The notes below the pieces were generated by a model, which saw nothing but the letters and a program-made list of their open reading frames with translations, was not told the origin of the DNA and ran no database searches. Shown piece by piece: positions 1-14,373 of a stretch of 14,373 nt of DNA. Source of the stretch: a virus (Duplodnaviria; Heunggongvirae; Uroviricota; Caudoviricetes); the IMG/VR virus record IMGVR_UViG_2541047837_000005, positions 1 to 14,373 of that record. One strand, written 5' to 3'. The position numbers and the translations under genes are program-made. Each line of letters begins with the position of its first letter. Positions within the stretch are counted from its first letter, which is position 1.

Positions 1-219
1 TTACATCCACATAATTTGCTGCCCTGACGGCAACGGGTGCGGCCTTACGGCGTGGACTTCTCCCGGCTTCACGATATATCGCTGTACCGACTCATAAGTG
101 ATGAATGTGGCGCTGCAATTCACGTTCTGACACTGGTGATAACGCTCTTTTGTCGTGTCAGTGATATAGCGACTTGTACGCGCATGTGCGGCATGCTGGC
201 ATAAAGGACAATGAAACAT
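1..219 (-). CDS. ogr: Ogr late-gene transcriptional activator, C4 zinc finger, 72 aa
   Basis: The 93-aa track ORF contains MFHCPLCQHAAHARTSRY...CQNVNC (Cys-x2-Cys-x22-Cys-x4-Cys) from the internal Met at 219; this matches the remembered P2 Ogr N-terminus and length. Stop is TAA at 1-3. Confidence 0.9.
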   Translation of the reverse strand: MFHCPLCQHAAHARTSRYITDTTKERYHQCQNVNCSATFITYESVQRYIVKPGEVHAVRPHPLPSGQQIMWM

Positions 220-253
220 CGCGAGCACCTCTTCCGGTTTTGTTGATGGTGCC

Positions 254-282
254 ATTTTAGTTAATTTATCCTTATAAAACAA
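254..282 (-). promoter_or_regulatory. Candidate sigma70 promoter for ogr (TTGTTT, 17-bp spacer, TAAAAT on the minus strand)
   Basis: Hexamers read by eye in the AT-rich leader upstream of the ogr ATG; no experimental or computational support. Confidence 0.25.
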
Positions 283-300
283 ACAGATAAAACAAAAACA

Positions 301-1263
301 TCACTCATCATCTTCTGTTTCGTACTCCACATCAGAAAGCCTGACCTCAAGCTCCAGGGACGTCGTGAAGCCGCTATTATTCAGAAAATGTGTCACCTTA
401 GTGATTGTCCAGTCCTGCTCGTCTATGACGCGCTTAAAGCCTGACACTTTAACCGGTGTTTCCGTGTAAATATCTGCCCGACCGGTAGCCAGGCTGATGG
501 AGAACTCCGCCACACCCCGTTGCAGTTTATCCCACTTCGCCTGAGCGGCGCGCATGGCCTGCGCTTTCGTGGCATATACCGTAGTCAGGGCAAAAACGTT
601 GTCAGCCTCACCGGCCATGTATTCACCTTCGCGCGCTTCCGGTACTTTAGGCGCTTTCTTCTGCCTGACCGGTTTCGCTTTCGGGTGCTCCAGTGCGCGC
701 AGGTGTTTCTCTTTCTTTTTGCGTTTCAGTTTTACCTTCTGCTTTTGTGGCTTCGGGTCTTTGGTGTGTAACCACTTTGCCGTTACGCCGGTATAGGCTC
801 CACGGTCAGCAATCGCAAAATGATGGCGGTCGCCGTCGCTGCGGGTTATGGTGACCTGCGGGATTTTTTTACCACTGGCCGTCACCCCCTGCCCCGCTTT
901 GAGAAACAACAGTTTTCCCATTTTTACCGACACCTCACCGCCGTTGCGTTCTGCAAGACGGGTCAGGAATTTCGCATCAGACTCCTGCGACTGGTCGATG
1001 TGCGGGATTTTAATTCCGGCCAGTGACGGAGCGACACTAGCTTCCAGCCTGTTAACGGCGCGTTTTGTCGCTTCCGGCCACTTTTCATCCCACCTGTCGA
1101 CCGAAAACGCCCACGCCAGCCACGGCAGCAGATTTGCCGGACAGGTGTCCGGGTTCCACAGTTCACGAATACTGACCGGCGTTTTTTCAATTTCCGCACA
1201 GGCTTTTGCGGCGGCAACTTCAAGCGGTGATGAGCCGGTCGGCAGCAGTCGCGAATCACTCAT
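301..1263 (-). CDS. Chimeric tail ORF: about 70 aa resembling the baseplate protein gpI N-terminus fused in frame to the C-terminal region of tail protein gpD (deletion remnant), 320 aa
   Basis: N-terminus MSDSRLLPTGSSPLE...LWNPDTCPANLLPWLAWAFSVDRWDEKW resembles the gpI family; remainder (IPHIDQ...TITRSDGDRHHFAIADR...LELEVRLSDVEYETEDDE) resembles the gpD C-terminus; length 320 aa versus about 387 for P2 gpD; lies directly upstream of ogr as D does in P2. Confidence 0.6.
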   Translation of the reverse strand: MSDSRLLPTGSSPLEVAAAKACAEIEKTPVSIRELWNPDTCPANLLPWLAWAFSVDRWDEKWPEATKRAVNRLEASVAPSLAGIKIPHIDQSQESDAKFLTRLAERNGGEVSVKMGKLLFLKAGQGVTASGKKIPQVTITRSDGDRHHFAIADRGAYTGVTAKWLHTKDPKPQKQKVKLKRKKKEKHLRALEHPKAKPVRQKKAPKVPEAREGEYMAGEADNVFALTTVYATKAQAMRAAQAKWDKLQRGVAEFSISLATGRADIYTETPVKVSGFKRVIDEQDWTITKVTHFLNNSGFTTSLELEVRLSDVEYETEDDE

Positions 1264-1406
1264 CCGAGCCCCCGGTCACGACGCGGTATTCGGTGCAGAA
1301 AGACGCCTGCGTACTGTTGAGCACAATGTCGGCCAAGCACCTTGCCGACAACAATCAGCACTCCAATCATGAAAAGCGACAGGACGCTTTTTTCTTCTGC
1401 TGTCAT
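1260..1406 (-). pseudogene. 48-aa remnant ORF: holin gpY-like N-terminus (MTAEEKSVLSLFMIGVLIVVGKVL) joined to a short tail that ends in an ATGA overlap with the next ORF
   Basis: Translated by hand from the minus strand (below the ORF-track size cutoff). GGGAG ribosome-binding site upstream of the ATG at 1406; hydrophobic helix typical of a holin N-terminus; TGA stop overlaps the ATG at 1263. Confidence 0.35.
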
Positions 1407-1409
1407 GCG

Positions 1410-1613
1410 TTACTCCCACAGATTGACAGTTTCAGCCACGGGCGCGGTCTGAACGTCGGGCAGTTCGACGGCGGTGCCGTGTGGCAGCACCGCACCCAGT
1501 TCAGCCAGTCCCGGATTTGCGGCGAGCACGGCCTCGACCACGCCCTCAGTGCGCCCGTAATACCGGACACAAATGGCGTCGAGCGTGTCGCCCTGTAGCG
1601 CAAAGGTCTTCAT
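1410..1613 (-). CDS. X: Tail protein X (LysM-like), 67 aa
   Basis: MKTFALQGDTLDAICVRYYGRTEGVVEAVLAANPGLAELGAVLPHGTAVELP from the internal Met of the 90-aa track ORF; ATGA start/stop overlap with L at 1611-1615. Confidence 0.85.
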   Translation of the reverse strand: MKTFALQGDTLDAICVRYYGRTEGVVEAVLAANPGLAELGAVLPHGTAVELPDVQTAPVAETVNLWE

Positions 1614-2122
1614 CAGATTTGACTCACGATGCAGCGCGGCTTGTCCTGGATGCGCGCCACTGCCCAGCGCATATCCCGCCACAGCTCATCAATGGTGCTG
1701 TCAATGCTGTCGGCCTTCTTGTCGCCTTTCGCACTGGCATCCACGCCGCGATAACGCTCATAAAGCGACGCGGTCGCCATCGCACACACGGCGCGCTCGT
1801 AGTAAAAAACTTTGATGCTTTCACCGTCGATGTCGTCCGCCGGGACGTCCGCCAGACGCGTAAAACCGGCGGCAATTTTCTGTTCGCGGTACTCGTACAG
1901 CTCCGCATTCGTCTCCGCCATGCCTGACTTGATGGCCTCACGCAGACGGGCGGGGGCGACGGTCTGCTCAAGGCGCATACGTTCCCGGACGCGCTTCGGG
2001 TCGATATCGGGAAAAAAGAACGTGTTTTTAATCACCGGCTCGTCGCCTGCCGGTTGCGGGATGACCACCGTACCCTCACCGGACACGGGAGCCTCCTTTC
2101 GCGGAATAATCAGCGTCATCAT
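1613..2122 (-). CDS. L: Head completion / capsid stabilisation protein gpL, 169 aa
   Basis: Starts MMTLIIPRKEAPVSGEGTVVIPQPAGDEP at the internal Met of the 189-aa track ORF; length matches P2 gpL; positioned between M and X. Confidence 0.85.
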   Translation of the reverse strand: MMTLIIPRKEAPVSGEGTVVIPQPAGDEPVIKNTFFFPDIDPKRVRERMRLEQTVAPARLREAIKSGMAETNAELYEYREQKIAAGFTRLADVPADDIDGESIKVFYYERAVCAMATASLYERYRGVDASAKGDKKADSIDSTIDELWRDMRWAVARIQDKPRCIVSQI

Positions 2123-2221
2123 GACTACCTCTGAAAAGTCGGGCGGTGGACGCCGGTACAGTGTCAGGTGATTCACCCTCACTGACCGGCGTGCCGCCCT
2201 GGCGCGGGGCGCATTCGGTTG

Positions 2222-2659
2222 TTAACTGGCTTTCTTTTTCGGGCGTCCACGTTTTGCCGGTGTCGCACTCCGGGTCTTACGCGGGGCGCGGGTGGCCGCT
2301 TTGGGCTGCGGCTCCGGCTTCGGTTTCAGCTCCCGCTCCAGTCGTTCAATCTCTTTTTTGACGCCTGCCTGACAGTCGAGCTGTGTCGCACGTTGCAGGT
2401 GAGCCATCAGAATGTCATCCTGTGCACCTTTGCCCTGCTCCAGCACGCCGTTCACCCACGGCAACCAGAACGGCAGCAGTTCGCGTTTTTTCGCGGCCTT
2501 CAGCTCTTTTGAATAAATCGCTTTCAGTGTGCGCTGGTCTGCGGCGAGCTTAACCAGCATCTGCTCATAGACAGTTGCATGTCGCAGCGGGGCGGCTTCC
2601 CGCTGCGCGGTCATCGCTGCCGAGACCCGCATCATGTGGCGCTGTGCGGGACTCGTCAT
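2222..2659 (-). CDS. M: Terminase small subunit gpM-like, internally shortened (145 aa versus about 247 in P2)
   Basis: Ends recognisable (MTSPAQRHMMRVSAAMTAQREAAP at the N-terminus; basic KPKPEPQPKAATRAPRKTRSATPAKRGRPKKKAS tail); position between N and L; about 100 aa shorter than remembered P2 gpM. Confidence 0.7.
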   Translation of the reverse strand: MTSPAQRHMMRVSAAMTAQREAAPLRHATVYEQMLVKLAADQRTLKAIYSKELKAAKKRELLPFWLPWVNGVLEQGKGAQDDILMAHLQRATQLDCQAGVKKEIERLERELKPKPEPQPKAATRAPRKTRSATPAKRGRPKKKAS

Positions 2660-2662
2660 CGG

Positions 2663-3736
2663 TTACGCTCCCGGCTCTGCGGTCGCCTTAGCCGGTGTGG
2701 AGAAATCACCGACCTTAATTTTTTCCACCAGACAACCGGCGGCGTAGTCTTCCACCACGTAATCAATGTTCATTGACTCGTAGTTCTCCACGCGGTCGAG
2801 TTTCGGGTTTTCCTCAATCACGCGGCGATGGCTGTCATCCATGTAGTAGATGGACAGGTTTTCCAGCTTCGTGATGAGCATCGCATCCGCCGGGAAGTAC
2901 GGGACGCGTACCGCCGGCAGGTTACCGATGCGTTTCTGGCTGATGATGACGTCAGCGGCCAGCATTTCGCTGTTGTCCTGCTCCTTGTTGACGATGGGGA
3001 AATATTTGTCCGCCAGCAGCTGACGCCCCACAATCACCACAAGGTCAGGGTCTTCCTGATACCACGGCTCAATCAGGTTGTTGGTCGCATCCATCACCAG
3101 TGCATCGAGGCTGGCATAATCACCGCTCTTACCCACGCGGATGACCTCAGAGGTGGTGTGCCCTTCCTCGTCAGTGACCTTGCTCATCACGCGCGCCGGG
3201 GCTTCATTGCGGTATTTCTGCAGCCAGCCGACCGCCACATCCTGCAGCATCGGATTGCTGCTGCGGTCAGAGGTTTCGGCACGCCTCACGCCGTTAAAAC
3301 CGGCCATGATGAAATCAAGGGACTGGCGTTTGATAATGGCGTTACGGACACGGAGCTGGAAATCCTGATAACGCGCCCACAGGTCCAGCGTTTTGTAGCG
3401 GATATAAAAATCGAAGTTAATCTGGTCGCATTCGTACTTGTTTGACGCCAGCTTCGAGAAGTCCTTCGGCTGACGCTCGGTGCCACCGGCGGTGTCGGTG
3501 GTGCTGGCGATGGAGCCGGTGACACCGATGCCAATTTTTTCCCCTTTCATTTCGCTGACCGGCACAATGTTGATGCGGGTCAGAAAGTCAGAGGACTCCT
3601 GCATGGTGTTCATCAGGGTCTGGGTGACCGACGGTTCAACGGTGAATTTTTTCGACACATCACCGGCGTCGATGCCGTTCAGTTCGGCAACACGGGACAG
3701 GTAAGCATTAAATTTAAAGCGGGTTTCCTGGCGCAT
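2663..3736 (-). CDS. N: Major capsid protein precursor gpN, 357 aa
   Basis: Full-length match in size and sequence character to P2 gpN (MRQETRFKFNAYLSRVAELNGIDAGDVSKKF...); AGGA ribosome-binding site upstream; follows O. Confidence 0.92.
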   Translation of the reverse strand: MRQETRFKFNAYLSRVAELNGIDAGDVSKKFTVEPSVTQTLMNTMQESSDFLTRINIVPVSEMKGEKIGIGVTGSIASTTDTAGGTERQPKDFSKLASNKYECDQINFDFYIRYKTLDLWARYQDFQLRVRNAIIKRQSLDFIMAGFNGVRRAETSDRSSNPMLQDVAVGWLQKYRNEAPARVMSKVTDEEGHTTSEVIRVGKSGDYASLDALVMDATNNLIEPWYQEDPDLVVIVGRQLLADKYFPIVNKEQDNSEMLAADVIISQKRIGNLPAVRVPYFPADAMLITKLENLSIYYMDDSHRRVIEENPKLDRVENYESMNIDYVVEDYAAGCLVEKIKVGDFSTPAKATAEPGA

Positions 3737-3794
3737 AGTTTTTCCTGAAATTAAGGGTTAATCGTGAAGGTTTTCCCGGACTGACTGACGCCGG

Positions 3795-4649
3795 TCAGCA
3801 GTTCGTCATCAGGGCGTCACCGCCACCACCGGTGGCCTTGCTGCGGCGCTGCTGGGTCAGACTTTCGGTGTGGTCGAGACTGTTTTTCAGGCGGGTGAAT
3901 GCCTGGCTGGTTTCATCCGCCCTGTCAGTCACCTCCTGCTTAAGTGCGGAAAAGGCGGTTTCCATCTCAGAGAGGCGCTGCTCAGTGGCGCTCAGTTTTT
4001 CCTGCACATGTTCAGCAACAGCGGTCACCGCTTCATGCACGTCATTCAGACGGGCGTCATCGCTGGCCTGTTTGCGGCCAAAAATGGATTTCACCTTTTC
4101 GGTCAGGGCGGTGAACACGGTTTCAGGCAGGTCTTCAAATTCCAGCTCAACAGGCGTTGCCACTGAAATCAGGTTTTCAGGGCTTAATTTGAAGCGGTTC
4201 AGGGGGTTGTGTTTTGCCGTGCGGCAGAATTCCAGGTATTCCGTGCCGAGGCTTGCCGGGTCATCGGTGACGGCCAGCCCCACCAGATAACATTTGCCGG
4301 TATTGGCAAAGTTCGGCTGAATTTCCATTGAGGTGTAGACTTTCTGCGCGGCCTTGTTCATCGCGATAAGGTCATCGGTCGGGGTGATTTTCGCAAACAG
4401 CGCCCATTTGCCTTTCAGCGCCGAATCGTCGTCAATCTTTTCGGCCTTCAGTTCGACCACATCGCCATAACGTTTAAAAATACCGTCAGGCAGGATGCCG
4501 CGCAGATGTTCCAGGTTAATGCGGCAACCGTAGACACGCGGGTCAAAGGTTTCAGCCATTTCCTGAATATCCTGCGCACTGATGACACGCCCGTCACAGG
4601 TGTCACCCTCAACGCCGATACGAAAGAATTTTGAGACTTTTTTTGCCAT
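3795..4649 (-). CDS. O: Capsid scaffolding protein gpO, 284 aa
   Basis: MAKKVSKFFRIGVEGDTCDGRVISAQDIQEMAETFDP from the internal Met of the 306-aa track ORF; length equals P2 gpO; AGGA ribosome-binding site upstream. Confidence 0.88.
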   Translation of the reverse strand: MAKKVSKFFRIGVEGDTCDGRVISAQDIQEMAETFDPRVYGCRINLEHLRGILPDGIFKRYGDVVELKAEKIDDDSALKGKWALFAKITPTDDLIAMNKAAQKVYTSMEIQPNFANTGKCYLVGLAVTDDPASLGTEYLEFCRTAKHNPLNRFKLSPENLISVATPVELEFEDLPETVFTALTEKVKSIFGRKQASDDARLNDVHEAVTAVAEHVQEKLSATEQRLSEMETAFSALKQEVTDRADETSQAFTRLKNSLDHTESLTQQRRSKATGGGGDALMTNC

Positions 4650-4822
4650 TGTCAGGAGTCCTGAATAGTGATTAGAGGAGTCACATGTCGGCATCAGTTT
4701 CCCGACGATACGCATCCTCCGCCATCAGTCCCGGATGGCTTATCACTGACACAACAGCACCTTAGCGAATCGCGGGGCGCGACTCAGTAGCCTTGCCGTG
4801 TATTCATCACGGCGAGGTATTC
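4650..4822. promoter_or_regulatory. Divergent late-promoter region between O (minus) and P (plus); contains a 7-bp direct repeat AGGAGTC (4654-4660 and 4676-4682) and an inverted repeat CCGTG-N7-CACGG (4794-4812)
   Basis: Intergenic position between divergently oriented late operons, as in P2; repeats read by eye; no clear TGT-N12-ACA Ogr-type site found. Confidence 0.4.
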
Positions 4823-5560
4823 ATGACCATCACCACAGACACCACTCTTTTACACGACCCGCGTCGTCAGGCGGCGCTGCTGTACTGGCAGGGGTTTTCC
4901 GTGCCGCAGATTGCCGCCATGTTGCAGATGAAACGCCCGACGGTGCAGAGCTGGAAACAGCGCGACGGCTGGGACAGCGTTGCCCCCATCAGCCGTGTCG
5001 AAATGAGTCTGGAAGCGCGGCTGACCCAGCTCATCATCAAACCGCAGAAAACCGGCGGTGACTTCAAGGAAATTGACCTGCTGGGACGCCAGATTGAACG
5101 GCTGGCGCGGGTCAACCGCTACAGTCAGACCGGCAACGAGGCAGACCTTAATCCGAACGTCGCTAACCGCAACAAAGGCGGGCGTCGCAAACCGAAAAAG
5201 AATTTTTTCAGTGACGAGGCCATCGAAAAGCTGGAGCAGATTTTCTTTGAGCAGTCTTTCGACTATCAGTTGCACTGGTACACGCCGGAAATGAAAACCG
5301 CAATGGTGCTCAAGGCAAAAGACGTCATCCGCCGTGGCTGTCTGGAATACGACGTCAGCGCCACCGACATCACCAGCTCGTTTATGGCTATCCGCAAGAC
5401 CATGACCAGCAGCGGACGCAGTGCCACCTATGAGGCCAGCCGCAGCGAGGAAGCCAGCCACGCCGACCTCGCCTGGGCGACCATGCACGCCCTGTTAAAT
5501 GAGCCACTCACCGCCGGTATCAGCACCCCGCTGACATCCACCATTCTGGAGTTTTACTGA
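4823..5560 (+). CDS. P: Terminase large (ATPase) subunit gpP-like, internally shortened (245 aa versus about 590 in P2); no Walker A motif seen
   Basis: MTITTDTTLLHDPRRQAALLYWQGFSVPQIAAMLQMKRPTVQSWKQRDGWDS N-terminus after GAGG ribosome-binding site at the internal ATG 4823; stop TGA overlaps the Q ATG at 5560; no GxxxxGK[ST] in the translation. Confidence 0.7.
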   Translation: MTITTDTTLLHDPRRQAALLYWQGFSVPQIAAMLQMKRPTVQSWKQRDGWDSVAPISRVEMSLEARLTQLIIKPQKTGGDFKEIDLLGRQIERLARVNRYSQTGNEADLNPNVANRNKGGRRKPKKNFFSDEAIEKLEQIFFEQSFDYQLHWYTPEMKTAMVLKAKDVIRRGCLEYDVSATDITSSFMAIRKTMTSSGRSATYEASRSEEASHADLAWATMHALLNEPLTAGISTPLTSTILEFY

Positions 5561-6594
5561 TGAGCAAGAAAAAAGGGAAAACACCGCAACCTGCGGCAAA
5601 AAAAATGACCGCCAGCGCCCCGAAAATGGAGGCATTCACCTTTGGTGAGCCGGTGCCGGTACTCGACCGCCGTGACATTCTGGATTACGTCGAGTGCATC
5701 AGTAACGGCAGATGGTATGAGCCACCGGTCAGCTTTACCGGTCTGGCAAAAAGCCTGCGTGCTGCCGTGCATCACAGCTCACCGATTTACGTCAAACGTA
5801 ATATTCTGGCCTCGACATTTATCCCGCATCCGTGGCTTTCCCAGCAGGATTTCAGCCGCTTTGTGCTGGATTTTCTGGTGTTCGGTAATGCGTTTCTGGA
5901 AAAGCGTTACAGCACCACCGGTAAGGTCATCAGACTGGAAACCTCACCGGCAAAATATACCCGCCGAGGCGTGGAAGAGGATGTTTACTGGTGGGTGCCG
6001 TCCTTCCATGAGCCGACACCTTTCGCGCCCGGCTCCGTGTTTCACCTGCTGGAGCCGGATATTAATCAGGAGCTGTACGGCCTGCCGGAATATCTCAGCG
6101 CCCTTAACTCTGCCTGGCTGAATGAGTCGGCCACGCTGTTCCGCCGCAAGTATTACGAAAACGGCGCACATGCCGGATACATCATGTACGTCACCGATGC
6201 CGTGCAGGATCGCAACGATATCGAAATGCTCCGCGAAAACATGGTGAAGTCGAAAGGCCGCAACAACTTTAAAAATCTGTTTCTCTATGCCCCGCAAGGG
6301 AAAGCCGACGGCATTAAAATTATCCCGCTCAGTGAAGTGGCGACGAAGGACGATTTTTTTAATATCAAAAAAGCCAGCGCCGCTGACCTGCTGGACGCAC
6401 ACCGCATCCCCTTTCAGTTGATGGGCGGCAAGCCGGAGAACGTCGGGTCACTGGGAGATATTGAGAAAGTGGCAAAGGTCTTTGTCCGCAATGAGCTTAT
6501 CCCGTTACAGGACAGGATCCGCGAGATAAACGGCTGGCTCGGTCAGGAGGTCATCCGCTTTAAAAACTACTCACTGGACACTGACAACGGCTGA
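5560..6594 (+). CDS. Q: Portal protein gpQ, 344 aa
   Basis: Length and sequence character of P2 gpQ; translationally coupled to P; followed by a terminator and cos. Confidence 0.92.
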   Translation: MSKKKGKTPQPAAKKMTASAPKMEAFTFGEPVPVLDRRDILDYVECISNGRWYEPPVSFTGLAKSLRAAVHHSSPIYVKRNILASTFIPHPWLSQQDFSRFVLDFLVFGNAFLEKRYSTTGKVIRLETSPAKYTRRGVEEDVYWWVPSFHEPTPFAPGSVFHLLEPDINQELYGLPEYLSALNSAWLNESATLFRRKYYENGAHAGYIMYVTDAVQDRNDIEMLRENMVKSKGRNNFKNLFLYAPQGKADGIKIIPLSEVATKDDFFNIKKASAADLLDAHRIPFQLMGGKPENVGSLGDIEKVAKVFVRNELIPLQDRIREINGWLGQEVIRFKNYSLDTDNG

Positions 6595-6599
6595 ACATC

Positions 6600-6621
6600 G
6601 CCGCCTGCGGGCGGCTTTTTT
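6600..6621 (+). terminator. Rho-independent terminator after Q: GCCGCC-TGCG-GGCGGC stem-loop followed by TTTTTT
   Basis: Perfect 6-bp GC stem with 4-nt loop and a 6-T run immediately 3' of the Q stop codon. Confidence 0.6.
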
Positions 6622-6763
6622 ACAACCCGCCATCACGCCCTCACACGCTCACCACCGCACAAAACAGCCCGCATACACACCAACGCCCCGGCGAACAATC
6701 TAAACGCCATCACGACGCGCTCAGACGCTGAAAAAATAAAATCAGCACCACCGCCAGCGCGCA

Positions 6764-6782
6764 GTGCTTTCCCCGCCTCGCC
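6764..6782 (-). other. cos cohesive-end site (19-nt P2 cohesive end GGCGAGGCGGGGAAAGCAC, present as its reverse complement)
   Basis: Exact 19-mer GTGCTTTCCCCGCCTCGCC on the plus strand, about 170 bp beyond Q, where cos lies in P2. Confidence 0.75.
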
Positions 6783-6905
6783 CGCCCGCTTCATGGGTCG
6801 GTTTTAATGCAGGTGCATGACCACCATGGTGTCGCGCCTATTCTGACGGAGCACGATCTAAACTAGCAGCTCCAACGCATGCAAAACAATGCGCCTAATG
6901 CTTGC

Positions 6906-6918
6906 ACATCTGAAAATA
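6906..6918 (+). repeat. Left copy of imperfect 13-bp direct repeat ACATCTGAAAATA flanking the AT-rich cargo
   Basis: 12 of 13 match to 8879-8891 (ACACCTGAAAATA); located at the left edge of the AT-rich block. Confidence 0.3.
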
Positions 6919-7049
6919 AAAATCGTGTAGAAAGATATAGCAAAGTCTGCATATTAAAGCTGGCTGGCACGCAACTCATATCGCAGTGATTTGCCAATTA
7001 CATTGCGCAAAATTTACACTAACAACGGTTATCAAGAAGCAGGCGCAAA

Positions 7050-7060
7050 TTGATTATCAA
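7050..7060. promoter_or_regulatory. Palindrome TTGAT-T-ATCAA in the leader of the MBL-fold gene (candidate operator)
   Basis: Perfect 5-1-5 inverted repeat about 145 bp upstream of the ATG at 7205. Confidence 0.2.
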
Positions 7061-7126
7061 AAACTCGATCTAATCTATTGATCTAGACACGAATATTTAT
7101 GCATCCTGATATTGTTTTAAAGGTCT

Positions 7127-7142
7127 TTGATTGCCTAATCAA
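7127..7142. promoter_or_regulatory. Palindrome TTGATT-gcct-AATCAA in the leader of the MBL-fold gene (candidate operator overlapping a putative promoter)
   Basis: Perfect 6-bp arms with a 4-bp spacer about 65 bp upstream of the ATG; shares the TTGAT half-site with 7050-7060. Confidence 0.2.
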
Positions 7143-7204
7143 GTCCTGCACTACTTTGGCGTACAACACTTACATAAAGTTGAAAACTACAGAAGGGCAC
7201 AAGA

Positions 7205-8290
7205 ATGGGTTACGAAGTTGATTTCTTAGCAGTTGGAGAAAAAAAAAGTGGAGATGCTATCTGCATAAGATGGGGCAACCTCCACGGAACAAGAGCAGAG
7301 CAAAAAGTTGTCGTAATTGATGCGGGGTACGCAAGCACTGGTCCACAAATAATTGAACATTTACAGAAATACTATCATACAAATACTATTGACTTACTCA
7401 TATCCACGCATCCAGATAGCGACCATGCTGGCGGCCTTGAGCATGTGATTGAGAATGCGGAAGTCAAAGAGTTCTGGATTCACCAACCTTGGGAGCATAA
7501 TGAAAATCTCGCGCAGGAATTTGCTGATGGAAGGATAACAGATGCAAGTATTGCCAGACGTATACAAGATAATCTACAAAAAGCCTATGATGCCGTCAAA
7601 TCAGCGAAAAAAAAAGGAATAGAAATTAAGGAGCCTTTTCAAGGCAGGACTTGGGACAATTCTAAACTGGTTGTTATTGGACCAACACAAGCATACTATG
7701 AAACATTAATCCCCGATTTTGCAAGAATGCCTGAAAAAGCAGAAACAACTGCAACCAGTGGTACAGATGCATATAACTACTTTTTTGAGAAAGCCAAAGA
7801 ACAAGTCGAGTATATTGCTGATTGGTTCTCTGATGAGGGAATTGATGACAAGGACACAACTACTGCACAAAACAATTCAAGCGTTATATTAAAAATTGAA
7901 ATTGACAATAAAACACTAGTATTTACAGGTGATGCAGGAATAACTGCATTAGATATGGCTGCTGATCATATAAATAATAACTCATTATCATTTATTCAAG
8001 TGCCCCACCATGGAAGCAGGAGAAACATCGGTCCAGCGGTGCTAAATAAGCTCGTTGGAAATATTGTAAGCGAAGGAGGAAGAAGTGGTGTTTGTGCATT
8101 TATATCATGCGCACCGGATTCCGATAAACACCCTCATCAAGCGGTCATTAATGCTTTTACAAGGCGTGGAGCCAAAGTAGTCGCCACAGAAGGCACCAAT
8201 AAACGCCATTCTAGTAATGCCCCCGCCAGAGATGGCTGGACTGCAGTCACCCCACGCTCATACGCAAGGAGTTATAAGACTGAAGAATAA
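7205..8290 (+). CDS. Metallo-beta-lactamase-fold hydrolase, ComEC/Rec2-like nuclease-type domain, 361 aa; cargo gene
   Basis: Motifs AVGEKKSGDAICI...VVVIDAGY, STHPDSDHAGG (His69/Asp71/Asp73/His74), LVFTGDAG, VPHHGS, and C-terminal HPH...VATEGTN, typical of ComEC-type MBL domains; about 35% GC in sampled lines; GAAGGG ribosome-binding site; position of old in P2. Confidence 0.75.
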   Translation: MGYEVDFLAVGEKKSGDAICIRWGNLHGTRAEQKVVVIDAGYASTGPQIIEHLQKYYHTNTIDLLISTHPDSDHAGGLEHVIENAEVKEFWIHQPWEHNENLAQEFADGRITDASIARRIQDNLQKAYDAVKSAKKKGIEIKEPFQGRTWDNSKLVVIGPTQAYYETLIPDFARMPEKAETTATSGTDAYNYFFEKAKEQVEYIADWFSDEGIDDKDTTTAQNNSSVILKIEIDNKTLVFTGDAGITALDMAADHINNNSLSFIQVPHHGSRRNIGPAVLNKLVGNIVSEGGRSGVCAFISCAPDSDKHPHQAVINAFTRRGAKVVATEGTNKRHSSNAPARDGWTAVTPRSYARSYKTEE

Positions 8291-8295
8291 TTCGT

Positions 8296-8317
8296 TAAGC
8301 TGCCTTAGGGCAGCTTA
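8296..8317. terminator. Hairpin TAAGCTGCC-TTAG-GGCAGCTTA between the convergent cargo genes (candidate bidirectional terminator)
   Basis: Perfect 9-bp stem with 4-nt loop starting 6 nt after the MBL gene stop, AT-rich on both sides; the stop codon of the minus-strand gene lies in the loop. Confidence 0.5.
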
Positions 8318-8793
8318 TTATTAGCCTTACTCACTCTTAATGTAATAAACTTAATTTGCTTAACGTACGACACAATAAAAACAAAAATCAAAAACAATGA
8401 AATCCATTTCGACGCCATGTAATCACCACCAACTACAAACGAAACAAAAAACAAAGAAAACAAAAAAACCAAGGACATAGAGAATAACGTCCTATACATA
8501 TTTGCAGTTTCTTGAAGAAGCTCTATTTTATTATCCTTTCTACATGCTGAGATATATTCCTCATATGGAACAAATTTTACCAGCCCCAAAAATTTCAACA
8601 CAGGCTCAAAAACAATAGACCCAATCCTTCCGATAATTATCCCCGTAAAATAGTAAAGTACCACATTCTTAACAACATCATCTGTGGATAATATCACATT
8701 GGTTGCCCGCTCAAACAAATAAATAAATAAAGCACCGGGAAAGAGATTGTTAAATATATTATAAGACGATATTTTTTCCCATAAACCATCCAT
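8305..8793 (-). CDS. Small multi-pass membrane protein of unknown function, 162 aa; cargo gene
   Basis: Three to four hydrophobic stretches (GALFIYLF; VVLYYFTGIIIGRIGSIVFEPVL; LFSMSLVFLFSLFFVSFVVGG; WISLFLIFVFIVSYV); ATG at 8793 with AAAGGTG ribosome-binding site (the track ORF starts at an upstream GTG); AT-rich. Confidence 0.65.
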   Translation of the reverse strand: MDGLWEKISSYNIFNNLFPGALFIYLFERATNVILSTDDVVKNVVLYYFTGIIIGRIGSIVFEPVLKFLGLVKFVPYEEYISACRKDNKIELLQETANMYRTLFSMSLVFLFSLFFVSFVVGGDYMASKWISLFLIFVFIVSYVKQIKFITLRVSKANNKLP

Positions 8794-8878
8794 ACAACAC
8801 ACCTTTTAACCAATTTTAAAGACGCCATTTTCATCAAAAGAAACAAAAATAGCAAGAACATCAGAACAAACTCTTTGA

Positions 8879-8891
8879 ACACCTGAAAATA
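8879..8891 (+). repeat. Right copy of imperfect 13-bp direct repeat ACACCTGAAAATA flanking the AT-rich cargo
   Basis: 12 of 13 match to 6906-6918; about 90 bp upstream of the membrane-protein start. Confidence 0.3.
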
Positions 8892-8908
8892 TTATGTTCC
8901 GACACCAT

Positions 8909-9061
8909 TCATTTTGTAAAAGCAGAATATCCCAAACACACATCGATTGTAGGATATATAAACGTCTTCCTGCCATATGTTATGGTAGCCCCTCGCGCCA
9001 GCGCCTCAAGCTCCCATCGCTGCGGCCTGATACCGTTCTGAGCAAGGTCAACGCGGATACT
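8909..9061 (-). pseudogene. Possible out-of-frame C-terminal remnant of replication gene A (...IRVDLAQNGIRPQRWELEALARGATITYG...)
   Basis: ORF in a different frame continues directly past the A stop (9048) to 8909 with GC content like the P2 core; assignment to the A C-terminus is from imperfect memory. Confidence 0.3.
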
Positions 9062-10766
9062 CGTTAACGTCATCCGACGGGCTACGGGCGACTCTGACAG
9101 TCTGACAATCGCGCGGAACATTTGCCCCACCCTGCGCGCTGATATACAACGCAAAATCACCACTGTCTGCGGCGGCGCGTGCAGCCTCGACGCGCTCGTC
9201 AAACTCATCAGCAATGCTGACGCCGCGAGGCAATTTGCGTAGTTCACGGTAAGCCCCCATTGTCGGCAGGCCAACCGTTTTAAATTGCGGAATGCGCCAC
9301 GTTGACGCCCATGCGGTAACAGCCGCGGCAGTATCTTTCAGCGGTCTGCCGGTATCGTTATCGAGCTGCCCATCCAGTGCATAGCCGTCGATATTTTTTG
9401 AGATGTATTTCGCGATATACCCCGCAGCACCGCCCCGGTTAAGATGTTTTGCCTGAAAACGGTTTCGCGCGGCTCCTCTTTCGTCGCCATCCTCTTTGAG
9501 CGCATAGCGACGCATGATTTCGATAATCTGGTTACGCTGGCGTGGATTACAAAAAAGCATCATATGCCAGTGCGGCGTTCCGTCGTGGTGTGGCTCGACG
9601 ACACGCAAACCGTAGGCCTGTAAATCATTATCCTTGAATGCCGTGCGCATCAGGCTCCAGATACGGCAGAGATAACGCTGCGCATCCTTTGGATTAAATG
9701 CCTCATCGTTCCAGCCGTGATTAAGCTGAACGGTTTTACTTTCGCCTTTTCCGACCTGACGTGTCGGGTGATACTTTGACGGCGCGGTCAGCGTGATAAA
9801 CATCCCCACATCACCCTCTGCAGCGGCGTAACGCTCAATACCGGCAATGGTGTTCATCAGCTCCATCCGGCGAATTTCAGGATTAGAAATACTGCCCATC
9901 ACCTTACTGATAAGGTCGATGCGCTCGCCGGTTTCCTTATTTTCAAGGTCACACGATTTAAGAAATTCCAGATTTGCCTGGCGGCGTGCACGCACATCAC
10001 GAATGGCATGTTTACTGGCATAAGGAGAACGGTCTTTATTGACCTCCCCGACAGCAATCAGTAACGCCTCATGCCAGCGCATACGCTGGCCTTTAAGCTG
10101 ATGAGTCCACCACTCATCGTTAAACAGACGGGCAATGGCAGAATATGCCTGCCTCGTGGTCATCTGCCCTTTACGGTATTTTTTCCAGTAGAGAGGGGAA
10201 ATATTGAAAGCTCGTGCAGCGCCAGCAACATGACCATACAGGTGAGCCTGCGCCTCATCCGTAAACAGCGATTCTTTCTCGCCATGCGCATCCACCCAGG
10301 CATCGCAGAGTTCCTCATACATCATGAAAAGCTGTGATGAGATACGGGCGGCAAACTTTTTCAGCTCCTTGTCATTCATTCCAGGCAAACGCGCATAATG
10401 GTCACGCTCTGCCAGAAACAGCAACGACGCGTCGGTGTTCATTTCATGGCGCTGATTCACACGCTCAATGCGCGGCCATAAACGACGCTGAAAAGTGGAT
10501 GTGAGGAAATAAAACCCGTGCACCGGGCTTTTATTGCGCCGGATGTAGTCATAGCGTGAAGTAAACAGCGAGCGCAAAAAGTAAGGCAGGCGATTAATCG
10601 TGGATAAAACACCTTGCACCTGACGCATCTCGTCACGTGTAAGGGGTCTTTCGCGCCCGACGGCCTCGCGTGGCGCGTTCCATGCATAAGCACCGGTAAA
10701 CGTCTCACCGGTGCCTGCGGCAAATGCTGACGGAGGGACAAAACGCCCGGAGGCTTTAACGGCCAT
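9048..10766 (-). CDS. A: Rolling-circle replication initiator gpA, C-terminally truncated (572 aa from the ATG versus about 761 in P2)
   Basis: MAVKASGRFVPPSAFAAGTG start at the internal ATG 10766 (the track ORF begins at an upstream TTG); HWHMM metal-binding motif and GYIAKYISK active-site tyrosine pair present; ends abruptly ...SDDVNEYPR. Confidence 0.85.
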   Translation of the reverse strand: MAVKASGRFVPPSAFAAGTGETFTGAYAWNAPREAVGRERPLTRDEMRQVQGVLSTINRLPYFLRSLFTSRYDYIRRNKSPVHGFYFLTSTFQRRLWPRIERVNQRHEMNTDASLLFLAERDHYARLPGMNDKELKKFAARISSQLFMMYEELCDAWVDAHGEKESLFTDEAQAHLYGHVAGAARAFNISPLYWKKYRKGQMTTRQAYSAIARLFNDEWWTHQLKGQRMRWHEALLIAVGEVNKDRSPYASKHAIRDVRARRQANLEFLKSCDLENKETGERIDLISKVMGSISNPEIRRMELMNTIAGIERYAAAEGDVGMFITLTAPSKYHPTRQVGKGESKTVQLNHGWNDEAFNPKDAQRYLCRIWSLMRTAFKDNDLQAYGLRVVEPHHDGTPHWHMMLFCNPRQRNQIIEIMRRYALKEDGDERGAARNRFQAKHLNRGGAAGYIAKYISKNIDGYALDGQLDNDTGRPLKDTAAAVTAWASTWRIPQFKTVGLPTMGAYRELRKLPRGVSIADEFDERVEAARAAADSGDFALYISAQGGANVPRDCQTVRVARSPSDDVNEYPR

Positions 10767-11031
10767 ATGAGCCAAAAGCCTCTGAACAACGCTTGCTGAG
10801 TTGCTCAACCTGCGCGTTTAAATCAGCAAAAGACTTTGCGCTTCCGGTCAGAATATCGTGATGCATCAGGCCGGAAACGAGCTGGCTTAATTTCGGGTAA
10901 TAACCAACCACCGCCAGCCATTCCTGACCGGCGTTTTTACCGCTTTCCGCTCTCTTTTTCTCGTGGAGAATAAACTGAAAGCTGTCACTGGTAACGACAT
11001 AACGTTCGCCAATTTCAATACGAATACTCAT
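10756..11031 (-). CDS. Hypothetical early-operon protein, 91 aa (P2 orf83-like by position)
   Basis: ATG with GGAG ribosome-binding site 8 nt upstream; overlaps the A start by 11 nt; between the zinc-finger ORF and A. Confidence 0.55.
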   Translation of the reverse strand: MSIRIEIGERYVVTSDSFQFILHEKKRAESGKNAGQEWLAVVGYYPKLSQLVSGLMHHDILTGSAKSFADLNAQVEQLSKRCSEAFGSYGR

Positions 11032-11252
11032 GCTGTTCTCCAGTAATGTTTGTTTTTTGCTTCAAAGACTGACTGACAGGAAACACAACGCGTGGCTGAC
11101 GGATAAGCCGCACGACGGGCAGCAGGTATTGGCGCATCACACTCTTCGCAAACCAGCGCAGAAGCACCACAATGTTTTACCCTTGCCGCGTTAATCTGGC
11201 GCTCCAGTAATTCAGCCTGTTGTTCCTGAATAAAATCCACGTTGTCCGGCAT
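11028..11252 (-). CDS. TraR/DksA-type C4 zinc-finger protein, 74 aa (P2 orf82-like)
   Basis: CGASALVCEECDAPIPAARRAAYPSATRCVSCQ gives a CxxC...CxxC arrangement; coupled to flanking ORFs by start/stop overlaps. Confidence 0.65.
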   Translation of the reverse strand: MPDNVDFIQEQQAELLERQINAARVKHCGASALVCEECDAPIPAARRAAYPSATRCVSCQSVFEAKNKHYWRTA

Positions 11253-11554
11253 TACCAGCTCCTTTTGTCGTTCAGTTTCTTAAATTCATCAGCGCAATAG
11301 CTGGTGATTTCTGTCGTTAATTTTGTCAGTTCATCCACGGAGGAAATTTGCTTGTGAAATACAGCGCGTTTAACAAGTAAATTGACCACATCAGACAGGA
11401 GGTTTAATTCACTCTGATAAATCGCGATAACAGATTCAGTTATTTCGCGTTTTTCTTTATCAAGCCTAAGTTGAATAAGAGACAAATCGCCATTTTTCAT
11501 AACGACGATTTTTAAGGCATTGTTCAGTAAAACAACTGAACGAGAACAGGACAT
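11252..11554 (-). CDS. Hypothetical early-operon protein, 100 aa from the ATG (P2 orf81-like by position)
   Basis: Track ORF starts at TTG 11557; ATG at 11554 overlaps the upstream stop by 1 nt; co-oriented within the B-to-A operon. Confidence 0.5.
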   Translation of the reverse strand: MSCSRSVVLLNNALKIVVMKNGDLSLIQLRLDKEKREITESVIAIYQSELNLLSDVVNLLVKRAVFHKQISSVDELTKLTTEITSYCADEFKKLNDKRSW

Positions 11555-11778
11555 CAAAGCACCTCCCCGCGAGACAATCCGATGTTGTGAAATTTTTCCG
11601 ACTCCTGACTGAGCAGCTCGACTATCTCCACGCGGGATAACTCCGCCTTTGTGATGTGGCGAATCATGGCGTCAAGATGAGAAGAAAAGCGCGTCGCAGC
11701 GTCGGCCTGTGCTTCGGTTCTGGCCTGTTGCAGCAGTAATGCGTATTTACCGCACTGATTTTCAGAAACTGTATGCAT
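11554..11778 (-). CDS. Hypothetical early-operon protein, 74 aa from the internal ATG (P2 orf80-like by position)
   Basis: Internal ATG at 11778 has a GGAG ribosome-binding site 7 nt upstream; the track ORF extends to 11811. Confidence 0.5.
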
Positions 11779-11841
11779 GACTTTCTCCAGGCAAAAAGAA
11801 GCCCCGCACAATTAAGTGCGTTAAAAACTCTGGTTAATTAC

Positions 11842-12342
11842 TTAATGCAGATATTGCTCTGGTTTTACCGACGTCAGAATTGTCGGTGCATACTCAAACA
11901 GACTGAATAATTCACGTAATGCACGGAATAAAGCATCACGCCAGTAACATGATTCTTCATTAATTCGCCAGTATGGCTGGTTAAATTCTTTTTCTGTCAG
12001 TCGTGCGTGCATAAATAAAGTGCGACGCTGACTGACTGTTAAAAAACTAATATATGCATACTCACTTGCGCCAACCTGACGGCGTTTTGAGAATGCCCCA
12101 CGCAATTCATCAATTGCACATACCAGTCGTTCACGTTCGACGTCGTTCATTTCTTCAAAACGCATCGTTGCGTGACGCTGTTTTAACTGAGCATGGAAGC
12201 AAACCGTTAACCGTTCGCGCTCCATCATCTGATTATAATAATCACATGTATCCTGCCAGCGAGGAACGGCAAGATGCTTACCAATTATCCGGCGCATAGC
12301 TGCTGGCTGTTTTTCAACGAGATTGAGCGTCATCACTGTCAT
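11842..12342 (-). CDS. B: Replication protein gpB (helicase-loading accessory), 166 aa
   Basis: Length identical to P2 gpB (166 aa); position between the orf78-like gene and the small early ORFs; ATG at 12342 overlaps the upstream stop. Confidence 0.75.
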   Translation of the reverse strand: MTVMTLNLVEKQPAAMRRIIGKHLAVPRWQDTCDYYNQMMERERLTVCFHAQLKQRHATMRFEEMNDVERERLVCAIDELRGAFSKRRQVGASEYAYISFLTVSQRRTLFMHARLTEKEFNQPYWRINEESCYWRDALFRALRELFSLFEYAPTILTSVKPEQYLH

Positions 12343-12575
12343 TTCCAGACCCTCCGGCTTTTCAGAAAGGTCAGAGCCTTTTTTACCGGACTCTGTTTTT
12401 TGGTGCGGATAATGATTCCCTTACGCCCCTTACCGTGGGTGATGGTGAAGTCAATCGCCCTGGGGCTTTCGTTACGCAATAACTGAGCAATACAACGAGG
12501 CTCGTTCATCCTTTCCACCTTAAGCCGCACGGCCATGTCTTGATTTGCTGTAACTAATGCGATTTTTCCAGTCAT
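12339..12575 (-). CDS. Hypothetical protein, 78 aa from the internal ATG (P2 orf78-like by position and length)
   Basis: Track ORF of 86 aa starts at TTG; from the ATG at 12575 the product is exactly 78 aa; lies between cox and B. Confidence 0.45.
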   Translation of the reverse strand: MTGKIALVTANQDMAVRLKVERMNEPRCIAQLLRNESPRAIDFTITHGKGRKGIIIRTKKQSPVKKALTFLKSRRVWK

Positions 12576-12891
12576 GCCATTCTGTCGGAGCTTCATCAAC
12601 TAGCTGGGCTGCGTACTTGTCCCACTCACGGCGATTAATCCATAATTCAGCTTTCCCTCTTGGTTTTAATGGGTCTGTCATGTAGAAGGCTGGCAGCTTT
12701 CCTGCTTTAGCCATTTCAGCCACCGCGCGTGGTGTCTTACCGATGTAAAGAGCAAAACCTTCTTTCGACAGCAAATCAGATGGGCGCTCTGAAATCTGAA
12801 TGCTTTTACGTTTGGCTTCATTTTCGAAACTTGCCTCATCGCTAGTTGGACAAGAAATTTCTACATTTGTCGTCACTTTGCTATCCTCCAT
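12520..12891 (-). CDS. cox: Cox/Apl-like helix-turn-helix excisionase and lytic-switch repressor; ORF is 123 aa, longer than the 91 aa of P2 Cox
   Basis: First gene of the early operon, divergent from C; helix-turn-helix-like segment FALYIGKTPRAVAEMAKAGKLPAFYMTDP resembling the Cox GKLP..MTDP region; ATG at 12891. Confidence 0.6.
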   Translation of the reverse strand: MEDSKVTTNVEISCPTSDEASFENEAKRKSIQISERPSDLLSKEGFALYIGKTPRAVAEMAKAGKLPAFYMTDPLKPRGKAELWINRREWDKYAAQLVDEAPTEWHDWKNRISYSKSRHGRAA

Positions 12892-12984
12892 AAGATTTGC
12901 GATTCACCAACTGGAGCCATCTAGAGCCTTTTTGAGCGAATCACAAATTGCCAAGTAACAATATAATTGGAGATTAGCAAAATT
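12892..12984. promoter_or_regulatory. Immunity switch region between cox and C with repeated GCGA(T/A)TCAC motifs (12899-12907, 12936-12944) and TATAAT at 12962-12967
   Basis: Divergent intergenic region at the expected Pe/Pc position; two copies of a 9-bp motif 37 bp apart; promoter elements read by eye only. Confidence 0.4.
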
Positions 12985-13284
12985 ATGTCAAGTGAACAAA
13001 GTGAGAAACTAAAGCTCATCCGTGAATCCGAACGCCTTAAAACTAAGGAACTTGCTGAATTAATTGGAATTAATTACTACACATATCATGGATATGAATC
13101 AGGAAAATCAAAAATGCCTATGGAAGCAGGTATGAAGCTGTTTAAGCATCCACGCTTTCGCAAGTATCGTGACTGGTTCATGTTTGATGAAACAGATCCA
13201 GCAGCTGGACAAATAGCCCCGGCTCTCGCACACATTGGGCAAGACTCAACAACCTTGCACCACTCAGACCAGAAGACTGGCTGA
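12985..13284 (+). CDS. C: Immunity repressor C, 99 aa
   Basis: From ATG 12985 (the track ORF starts at TTG 12967): helix-turn-helix LKTKELAELIGINYYTYHGYESGKS and C-terminus GQIAPALAHIGQDSTTLHHSDQKTG resembling P2 C; 99 aa as in P2; upstream of int. Confidence 0.8.
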   Translation: MSSEQSEKLKLIRESERLKTKELAELIGINYYTYHGYESGKSKMPMEAGMKLFKHPRFRKYRDWFMFDETDPAAGQIAPALAHIGQDSTTLHHSDQKTG

Positions 13285-13377
13285 CGATTTATTCAGCATA
13301 TGTGTGTAGTAAATGTACGAAAGAAAATTGCATTAATTTTCAAGTAGTAGAAGTAAACAGCGTCATCGGAGGGCTTT

Positions 13378-14373
13378 ATGTCTATTAAAAAGCTCGATGA
13401 TGGTCGTTATGAAGTGGACGTCAGACCGCAGGGTGCAGATGGAAAACGTATCAGGCGGAAATTTAAAACTAAAGGTGAAGCTCAAGCATTCGAACGTCAT
13501 GTACTGGTTAACTACCACAACAAAGAGTGGTTGGAGAAACCAGCCGACCGCCGAACTCTTACAGAGTTGTTAGGCAGATGGTGGATATATCACGGAAAAT
13601 CACATGAGCGTGGAGATATTGAACGGGGGCGTTTAACGACAATAATCGCCAAATTTGCAGAAATGGGAGTGTCCAGAGCTGACCAGCTAACAAAGAAAAC
13701 GATAACTGATTATCGCGTTGTAATGATGAACGATGGTCTGAAACCAGCCAGCGTAAATCGACATCTGGCAATAATGAGCGGGATGTTCACCAAGTTAATT
13801 GACGCCGGTGAATACCACTCTCACAACCCGTTCCGTGAGATTAAACGGTTACGTGAAGCTGTTACGGAAATGGCTTTTTTGTCCAGTGAAGAGATTACGC
13901 GGCTGTTATCCATGCTTGATGGTGATGAATTAAATGCAACTCTGGTCTGCCTTTCTACTGGTGGACGCTGGAGTGAAGTGTCTAATTTAAAAGCTGAACA
14001 CATCATTAACCAGATGGTTACGTTTATGAAAACTAAAAACGGAAAACGCAGGACAATTCCCGTTTCGCAGGACCTGATTAAACGGATCAAGACCAAAAAT
14101 TCAGGCAGGCTTTTTAATGCCAGTTACTACAAAGTGCGTAACGCTCTCAGGGAAGTAAAACCCGATTTACCTGACGGACAAGCAGTACATGTTTTGAGGC
14201 ATACATTTGCCACACATTTTATAATGAATGGAGGTAACATAATCACATTGCAGCGCATCCTGGGTCATTCTAACATTCAGCAAACTATGACCTACGCACA
14301 CTTTGCACCGGATTTCTTACAAGATGCTGTGACTCTTAACCCGGTGTCAGGAATGTCCATAATGCGTCCATAA
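13378..14373 (+). CDS. int: Tyrosine integrase (P2 Int family), 331 aa
   Basis: N-terminus MSIKKLDDGRYEVDVRP; catalytic signature TGGRWSE, HVLRHTFATHF, GHSNIQQTMTYAHF; GGAGGG ribosome-binding site; TAA stop is the last codon of the window. Confidence 0.92.
   Translation: MSIKKLDDGRYEVDVRPQGADGKRIRRKFKTKGEAQAFERHVLVNYHNKEWLEKPADRRTLTELLGRWWIYHGKSHERGDIERGRLTTIIAKFAEMGVSRADQLTKKTITDYRVVMMNDGLKPASVNRHLAIMSGMFTKLIDAGEYHSHNPFREIKRLREAVTEMAFLSSEEITRLLSMLDGDELNATLVCLSTGGRWSEVSNLKAEHIINQMVTFMKTKNGKRRTIPVSQDLIKRIKTKNSGRLFNASYYKVRNALREVKPDLPDGQAVHVLRHTFATHFIMNGGNIITLQRILGHSNIQQTMTYAHFAPDFLQDAVTLNPVSGMSIMRP

Follow-up and report, generated by a model that had tools for sequence, protein, structure and literature searches.

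A convergent gene pair encoding a ComEC-like metallo-beta-lactamase-fold protein and a four-helix membrane protein: a candidate defence module in the cos-gpA hotspot of P2-like phages

The MBL-fold protein and its membrane partner

We analyzed a 14,373-nucleotide stretch of phage DNA (positions 1 to 14,373 of the IMG/VR virus record IMGVR_UViG_2541047837_000005, Caudoviricetes; hereafter the window) that carries, on its plus strand at 7205..8290, a gene for a 361-amino-acid protein with the metallo-beta-lactamase (MBL) fold. The gene begins with ATG, and its product, identical to RefSeq WP_021533447.1 and recognized by the PADLOC model PDC-M48B, is a predicted metal-dependent DNase of the ComEC-like/HamM-like kind. 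An earlier note on this DNA, made from the letters alone, had described a stand-alone ComEC-like MBL hydrolase in the position of the P2 Old nuclease. The open reading frame, its length and all of the motifs quoted there were found at the residues given (GDA at 16, VIDAG at 37, HPDSDH at 69-74, TGDAG at 241, VPHHGS at 266, and HPH at 309). The description as stand-alone did not hold, since in nearly all of the loci examined the MBL gene has a conserved membrane-protein gene as its neighbor. In the window this partner gene lies on the minus strand at 8305..8793, convergent with the MBL gene and 14 bp past its stop codon.

Several lines of evidence bear on the reality of the MBL gene. Pfam Lactamase_B (PF00753) matched the protein with E=2.4e-13 and 50.9 bits, above the gathering score of 22.7. 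One homologue search returned 2399 homologue clusters, and an exhaustive profile search recovered 697 clusters (50% identity) at E<=1e-30, nearly all of them 350-375 amino acids long and matched over their full length. In an alignment of 31 sequences with identity down to 47%, the invariant residues include D17, D39, H69, D71, D73, H74, H93, D243, H268, H269, and H309. Because the Pfam score exceeds the cut-off, full-length homologues are many and the metal-binding set is invariant, we conclude that the gene is real and conserved.

The AlphaFold2 model of the MBL protein has a predicted local distance difference test score (pLDDT) of 89.3 and a predicted template modeling score of 0.89, with disorder limited to residues 182-196. 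Its best solved match in Foldseek was the ComEC beta-lactamase-like domain 9ic4 (E=2.5e-14, TM score 0.75 on the target), which was likewise the top match of the family's sequence profile (2.7e-12), and 104 MBL-fold entries of the PDB matched the model at E<=0.001. With the Pfam score and the shared motifs, these results show that the fold had been named correctly as MBL of the ComEC flavour. Further structural matches include RNase J, IntS11/CPSF73 and the type VII CRISPR Cas14 nuclease. Nuclease activity appears to be the likeliest chemistry for the protein, ComEC and the closest defence-linked relatives being DNases. Two insertions, together about 68 residues extra, separate motif II from the NNSS motif. 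The first (about residues 98-147) folds into a helical hairpin that is modeled with confidence and bears the invariant motif DGRxTDxS, and the second (about 165-215) holds the disordered, sequence-variable loop 182-196. Since the protein lacks a signal peptide and its MBL core begins at residue 2, the enzyme is probably cytoplasmic.

The partner gene, whose ATG at 8793 follows the sequence AAGGTG, encodes a 162-amino-acid four-helix inner-membrane protein (WP_021533448.1; PADLOC PDC-M48A). Both products of the pair match their PADLOC models over the full length, the membrane protein with E=6.7e-49 (PDC-M48A) and the MBL protein with E=6.4e-99 (PDC-M48B). In the AlphaFold2 model of the membrane protein (pLDDT 88.8), helices span residues 10-31, 40-68, 89-121, and 126-157, connected by two very short loops and by a 20-residue segment that joins helices 2 and 3. 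Basic residues concentrate at the N terminus, in the middle segment and at the C terminus, which argues for an N-in/C-in topology. The family alignment contains the invariant motifs KISSYNxFN-x-PG, YYF-G-x4-R-x-GS, NxYRT, and SYxKQ, and these would be predicted to face the cytoplasm. The protein had no Pfam match at E<=0.01, no NCBIfam match and no fold match in the PDB (best E=0.35). The idea that it might be a protease was considered and found unsupported, as the invariant set has no histidine and no intramembrane-protease motif was recognizable.

Distribution of the pair and its phage context

We surveyed the pairing of the two genes in 41 IMG/VR loci and in other fetched contexts. Among close MBL homologues (>=54% identity, in P2-like loci), the membrane family found in the window was convergent with the MBL gene, at a distance of 13-33 bp, in 16 of 16 cases. 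A 5.5-kb Citrobacter plasmid carries the same convergent pair, there with a 4-nt overlap between the genes, and locus L042 is likewise paired; because the convergent layout is kept on this plasmid, it belongs to the cassette and not to the phage context. In Faecalibacillus (Firmicutes), an unclassified bacterium and loci L043 and L045, the MBL gene is directly preceded, in the same orientation, by a gene for a member of this membrane family, with a 4-nt overlap of the two genes in Faecalibacillus. For more distant MBL homologues (30-50% identity), from Aeromonas, Microbulbifer, Alishewanella, Rhodococcus and many viral contigs, the next gene instead encodes a multi-transmembrane (multi-TM) protein of about 205-266 amino acids that belongs to one of two further families (for example, L003 7095-7760, L002 7109-7735, L056 7095-7742, L024 6088-6846, and L052 5057-5782). 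No homology was detected among the three partner families (hhalign probabilities of 0.1-2%). The PDC-M48A models of PADLOC recognize neither of the other two, so that current detection rules would miss such loci as complete systems. The constant element is thus this MBL protein together with some small polytopic membrane protein.

A constant enzyme with a partner drawn from three unrelated multi-TM families resembles systems in which effectors are swapped. It could be argued on this basis that the membrane protein is the killing effector, disrupting or depolarizing the membrane in an abortive infection, and that the MBL protein is a sensor or regulator that, for example, recognizes or processes phage nucleic acid or a nucleotide signal and then activates it. 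Many two-gene systems of an enzyme and a TM protein are presumed to have the latter as their effector (Rousset et al. 2022, discussion), and 7dck, an MBL-fold phosphodiesterase of unstated substrate, is among the structural matches of the MBL model. We nevertheless regard this division of labor as unlikely: the closest characterized relatives of the MBL protein are themselves terminal DNase effectors, its full catalytic set is invariant, and comparison with PADLOC, Pfam, and the PDB detected no resemblance of the membrane protein to known pore-forming or defence TM effectors. We favor the assignment in which the MBL protein would act as the nuclease effector and the membrane protein would serve it.

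The surroundings of the MBL gene in the window are a cos site, the gene for the four-helix membrane protein, and gpA. The cos site (6764..6782, minus strand; GGCGAGGCGGGGAAAGCAC) is an exact 19-nt match to the cohesive-end sequence of P2, is present as the same exact sequence in 13 related P2-like loci, and forms one edge of the variable hotspot. Between it and gpA (9048-10808, minus strand) is inserted an accessory cassette, or moron, at 6800..8900, whose GC content of 0.34-0.44 compares with 0.53-0.60 in the flanking phage genes. This position means that the cassette occupies the old/tin slot of P2, and the earlier note had placed it correctly. The overall order of the window is gpN and gpO on the minus strand, gpP and the portal gene gpQ (ending at 6594) on the plus strand, a terminator, cos and the cassette, followed by gpA, cox and neighboring early genes on the minus strand and by a repressor-like helix-turn-helix gene and int on the plus strand. 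The terminator is a strong intrinsic-terminator-like hairpin at 6600-6615 (GCCGCC-TGCG-GGCGGC, then TTTTTT), directly after the portal stop codon and upstream of cos.

Inside the cassette, sigma-70 promoter-like sites lie 5′ of the MBL gene (7084..7113, plus strand; TAGACA-18-GATATT, 9/12 consensus matches) and 5′ of the membrane-protein gene (8891..8920, minus strand; TTTACA-18-CATAAT, 10/12). Both are consensus matches only, and such sites are no more frequent in the region than expected from shuffled sequence. A hairpin with a 9-bp stem and a 4-nt loop (8296..8317) stands between the convergent stop codons and overlaps that of the membrane-protein gene. Folding of 8285-8330 gave a minimum free energy of -15.6 kcal/mol (z = -3.5 versus shuffles), and this hairpin may be a shared bidirectional terminator. 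It was the only structure found in the cassette, where a search for inverted repeats at a 9-nt seed gave none; a scan of the whole window against Rfam gave no match.

The cassette is 99.9% identical in the isolated, viable phages Peduovirus P24E6b and Escherichia phages D8, 11W, and 12W, and 23 of 5426 complete E. coli genomes carry it at this allele level. P2-like phages with portal and gpA proteins only about 32% identical to those of the window (L022) have it in the same slot, as does a P2-like prophage of Yersinia. The window itself is an apparently entire, but heavily deleted, P2-like prophage that runs from ogr (1-282) to int (13378-14373) and measures about 14.4 kb, versus about 31 kb in intact relatives. 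Deletion junctions lie near 1263-1330, 2405, 5279-5288, and 9058-9060. Compared with the EFF60 prophage, about 1024 bp of the terminase gene gpP (255 versus 590 amino acids), about 419 bp of gpA (586 versus 759 amino acids) and about 304 bp of gpM are missing, and among 5426 complete E. coli genomes not one matched the gpP junction region in a single piece. An open reading frame at 301-1263 on the minus strand (320 amino acids) fuses the N terminus of gpI (Tail_P2_I 1-64 of 139) to the C-terminal part of gpD (Phage_GPD 109-304 of 305), which indicates that the tail-fibre, sheath, tube, and tape-measure genes (H, G, FI, FII, E, T, and U) have been deleted. The MBL protein is identical to its counterparts in viable phages and intact prophages, and the membrane partner is nearly so.

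The persistence of an intact pair in a prophage stripped of most structural genes, and its presence on the 5.5-kb plasmid, other plasmids, and prophages, would suit an addiction (toxin-antitoxin-like) module that stabilizes mobile elements, with the nuclease as toxin, the membrane protein as antidote or sequestering factor, and phage exclusion as an incidental effect. The convergent genes with their separate promoter-like sites would permit independent expression. We think such a role very unlikely. The small 5.5-kb plasmid already has ccdAB, and many homologous pairs are co-directional and overlapping, which fits a stoichiometric complex as much as it fits a toxin-antitoxin pair. There is no evidence that stability differs between the two products, and defence and toxin-antitoxin functions can coexist.

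Elsewhere, the cassette or its homologues adjoin or lie inside islands with type I restriction-modification (RM), Gabija-like, and YjiT/YjiV genes. The pair has a type I RM system as a neighbor in L003, L008, and L056; L003 and L056 also contain Gabija-like and YjiT/YjiV genes, and a DUF4365 gene is found in L004. This recurring association with RM systems and defence islands has to be weighed against what is known of the phage slot. The cos-gpA interval is the P2 old/tin hotspot, in which 169 different systems were recorded in E. coli, and a putative plasmid-partitioning system occupies it in about a quarter of P2-like phages (Rousset et al. 2022). Since so many systems and partition cargo share the slot, hotspot position alone is a weak functional argument. 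The suggestion in the earlier note of a functional analogue of Old accordingly divides into two parts: a nuclease is plausible through the ComEC and defence-DNase relatives, but position by itself says little.

Cargo of other kinds brings in a further alternative, in which the cassette has no part in defence and encodes a phosphodiesterase or esterase acting on a non-DNA membrane substrate, such as lipid or envelope head groups, or serves lysogenic conversion or DNA scavenging. The second-best structural match of the MBL model is the pneumococcal phosphorylcholine esterase Pce/CbpE (E=4e-10), an obligatory membrane partner would fit a membrane-proximal substrate, and virulence genes as well as partition genes are found in the P2 hotspot. 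Set against these points are the predicted cytoplasmic location of the enzyme, the finding that HamM-type relatives showed no choline-esterase, beta-lactamase or RNase activity, and the recurrence of RM and defence-island neighbors. On balance we hold a non-defence function to be rather improbable.

A proposed nuclease-based defence module

Taken together, these data lead us to give about an even chance to a two-gene module directed against phages or other mobile genetic elements, with a cytoplasmic DNase as the effector and the membrane protein as its anchor, sensor or regulator. Protection of the lysogen against other phages or mobile DNA would be the most likely role of the cassette. The 361-residue protein would be a cytoplasmic binuclear-metal DNase of the ComEC-like MBL branch, closest to the HamM/Avs1a-type DNases. 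According to three 2025 studies, HamM, Avs1a, and VcMBL are metal-dependent, DNA-specific nucleases, and all of them are held inactive by two inserted loops, absent from ComEC, until a partner protease cuts the loops and unlocks the enzyme (PMC12799240; 10.1101/2025.09.03.673762; PMC12642450). Because both insertions, which cover the active site in these relatives, are retained in the MBL protein of the window, it too is probably held inactive until infection. The membrane protein would anchor or regulate the nuclease at the membrane and would couple its release or activation to a membrane event associated with infection. Once activated, the nuclease would be expected to degrade DNA, either the incoming phage genome or all of the DNA of the cell, the latter amounting to abortive infection.

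A more specific version of this proposal can be formulated, although we consider it doubtful. Here a widespread clade of ComEC-derived defence DNases would be controlled without a dedicated protease, and the minimal four-helix protein, for which two or more unrelated multi-TM families could substitute, would hold the gated nuclease at the membrane and free it upon membrane perturbation by a phage or upon DNA injection, so that the phage genome is cut at entry.

A number of observations weigh against the defence module or against its gating by the membrane protein. No protease gene was found near the pair in the window or beside MBL homologues in the examined loci, and neither of the cleavage motifs defined in the 2025 work, KSS and IS(G)N, was seen conserved in the loops of the MBL protein, including the variable segment 182-196. 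Given this lack of an adjacent protease and of a conserved cleavage motif, the gating of the enzyme is something we infer from its relatives. The Faecalibacillus MBL protein, paired with the same membrane family, is without insertion 2. The periplasmic loops of the membrane protein are shorter than 10 residues and form no obvious sensing domain, and a specific protein-protein switch is difficult to square with three unrelated partner families. The Pce match leaves room for a non-DNA substrate, and the P2 hotspot is known to carry virulence and partition genes, i.e., non-defence cargo (Rousset et al. 2022). Finally, the PADLOC candidate systems are described as unverified, the pair was not among the systems cloned by Rousset et al. 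2022, and we found no published test of the pair, of its anti-phage activity or of any other MBL+TM system in the literature.

The locus is not new as such, contrary to what the earlier note implied. The pair corresponds to system #34, 'Lactamase_B', in Table S5B of Rousset et al. 2022 (107 occurrences, '4 TM in protein 2'), with 75% and 62% identity of the two window proteins to the representatives of that system at the same locus; WP_021533447 and WP_021533448 themselves appear in Table S5A. The pair also conforms to PADLOC PDC-M48, its homologues of PDC-M48A and PDC-M48B being adjacent and 14 bp apart. PDC-M48 is one of 145 phage defence candidates of PADLOC, which were derived from guilt-by-embedding in known systems (BREX, DISARM, type I RM, and Hma) (Payne et al. 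2024, bioRxiv 10.1101/2024.01.29.577857). Neither resource proposes a mechanism for the pair. What is already known, then, is its listing as a candidate in two public resources; what is new is the membrane partner in place of the protease in a putative ComEC-like defence DNase.

At present, the practical value of the analysis lies mostly in the correction of annotations. RefSeq genomes name the MBL protein a 'ComEC/Rec2 family competence protein', which over-reaches. In NC_049389.1 the gene is called 'tail protein', and it matches the 'tail protein' PHROG phrog_7043; this name is unsupported. The membrane partner is widely named 'phosphohistidine phosphatase', a name that likewise has no support from Pfam or NCBIfam.

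The wider interest depends on the clade. The window locus falls in a large sister clade of the ComEC-like MBL DNases that were described in 2025 as protease-unlocked death effectors of Hachiman, AVAST, Lamassu, and DRT systems, the sister clade being the 697 clusters noted above, whose members are found in P2-like phages, plasmids, and defence islands of Proteobacteria, Actinobacteria, and Firmicutes. This clade retains the insertions that gate those enzymes, with a small membrane protein in place of the protease. Were it to act in defence, it would exemplify a second, non-proteolytic control of the same nuclease and would add a membrane-coupled nuclease system to the repertoire of the P2 hotspot. 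The cassette spans 2 kb with its predicted native promoters, and viable carrier phages exist.

Comparison with known systems

The likeness to ComEC/Rec2 (9ic4; TIGR00361) is confined to the MBL domain. The motifs HxDxDH, NN(S)/NNSS, GD, and PHHGS are common to both, but the protein of the window consists of this domain only, without the OB fold and without the competence membrane domain, and has the about 68 extra residues. It scored 50.9 bits against TIGR00361 (cut-off 190.05) and 27.7 bits against PRK11539 (cut-off 969), below both cut-offs. Membership in the ComEC/Rec2 family was rejected on this score and on the missing domains. E. coli ComEC (YcaI) aligned with the protein in two short blocks only, flanking the insertions, both of which YcaI lacks. 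A split ComEC, with the membrane partner as the detached membrane region, was also considered and rejected at the level of sequence, as the partner family gave an hhalign probability of 0.7% against the membrane region of YcaI.

P2 Old and Tin share with the cassette the cos-gpA slot of a P2-like phage, and a nuclease is predicted for the MBL protein as for Old. However, Old is an ATPase-TOPRIM nuclease of the OLD family, whereas the fold of the MBL protein is unrelated and its locus comprises two genes, one of them for a membrane protein. Scans with Pfam, PADLOC, and NCBIfam gave no match to an ABC-type ATPase or TOPRIM domain in the MBL protein, which bears out the earlier note's view that its fold is unlike that of Old. 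Rst_Hydrolase-3TM (Rousset et al. 2022) similarly joins a hydrolase to a multi-TM protein in a cos-adjacent hotspot of P2/P4 elements, but its hydrolase is HAD-like and comes from the P4 hotspot, the enzyme of the window is an MBL protein, and PADLOC gave no match of the pair to that system. The validated 'Hydrolase+3TM' system of Rousset et al., considered as a possible identity of this locus, was rejected on the same grounds, i.e., a HAD-like hydrolase from the P4 hotspot.

The nearest characterized relatives of the MBL protein are instead the protease-linked defence DNases of the HamM/Avs1a type. The earlier note knew of no named anti-phage system with such a domain; Avs1a, HamM, the Lamassu- and DRT-associated MBL proteins, and 6A-MBL all use it, and protease-linked MBL proteins occur in Hachiman (HamM), AVAST type 1 (Avs1a), Lamassu, DRT, ABC-3C, and caspase (canu) systems. 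Among PADLOC models, the LmuA-associated MBL matched the protein of the window with 96 bits, colinearly over residues 13-283 (model positions 10-278), followed by the RT-associated MBL (74 bits) and Avs1a (56 bits), all higher than the 50.9 bits obtained with the ComEC model TIGR00361. The NCBIfam equivalogs for Avs1a (62.7 bits, cut-off 420) and 6A-MBL_enzyme (33.8 bits, cut-off 220) were matched far under and under their cut-offs, respectively. As a comparator we used an ABC-3C-type locus on a Clostridium butyricum megaplasmid (L051, 4962-10702; NZ_CP132345.1), which encodes an MBL protein, a 453-amino-acid protease-fusion protein, a 'middle component 1', and an AAA ATPase. The C. butyricum MBL protein, next to the protease-fusion gene, is a 201-bit match to the LmuA-MBL model, and by BLASTP it aligned with the MBL protein of the window at 26% identity over 296 amino acids (E=7e-18), through both insertions.

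The locus of the window thus shares with the HamM/Avs1a-type zymogens a homologous ComEC-like MBL core, the same catalytic motifs, two colinear insertions and defence contexts, and it differs from them in the first insertion and in the partner. Insertion 1, a disordered loop in those enzymes, is here a folded helical hairpin with the DGRxTDxS motif, and a four-helix membrane protein stands where they have a trypsin-like, caspase or subtilisin partner. Should release at the membrane upon phage entry prove to be its mode of action, the pair would represent a switch that couples a zymogen-like nuclease to the membrane and is unlike the proteolytic one described in 2025.

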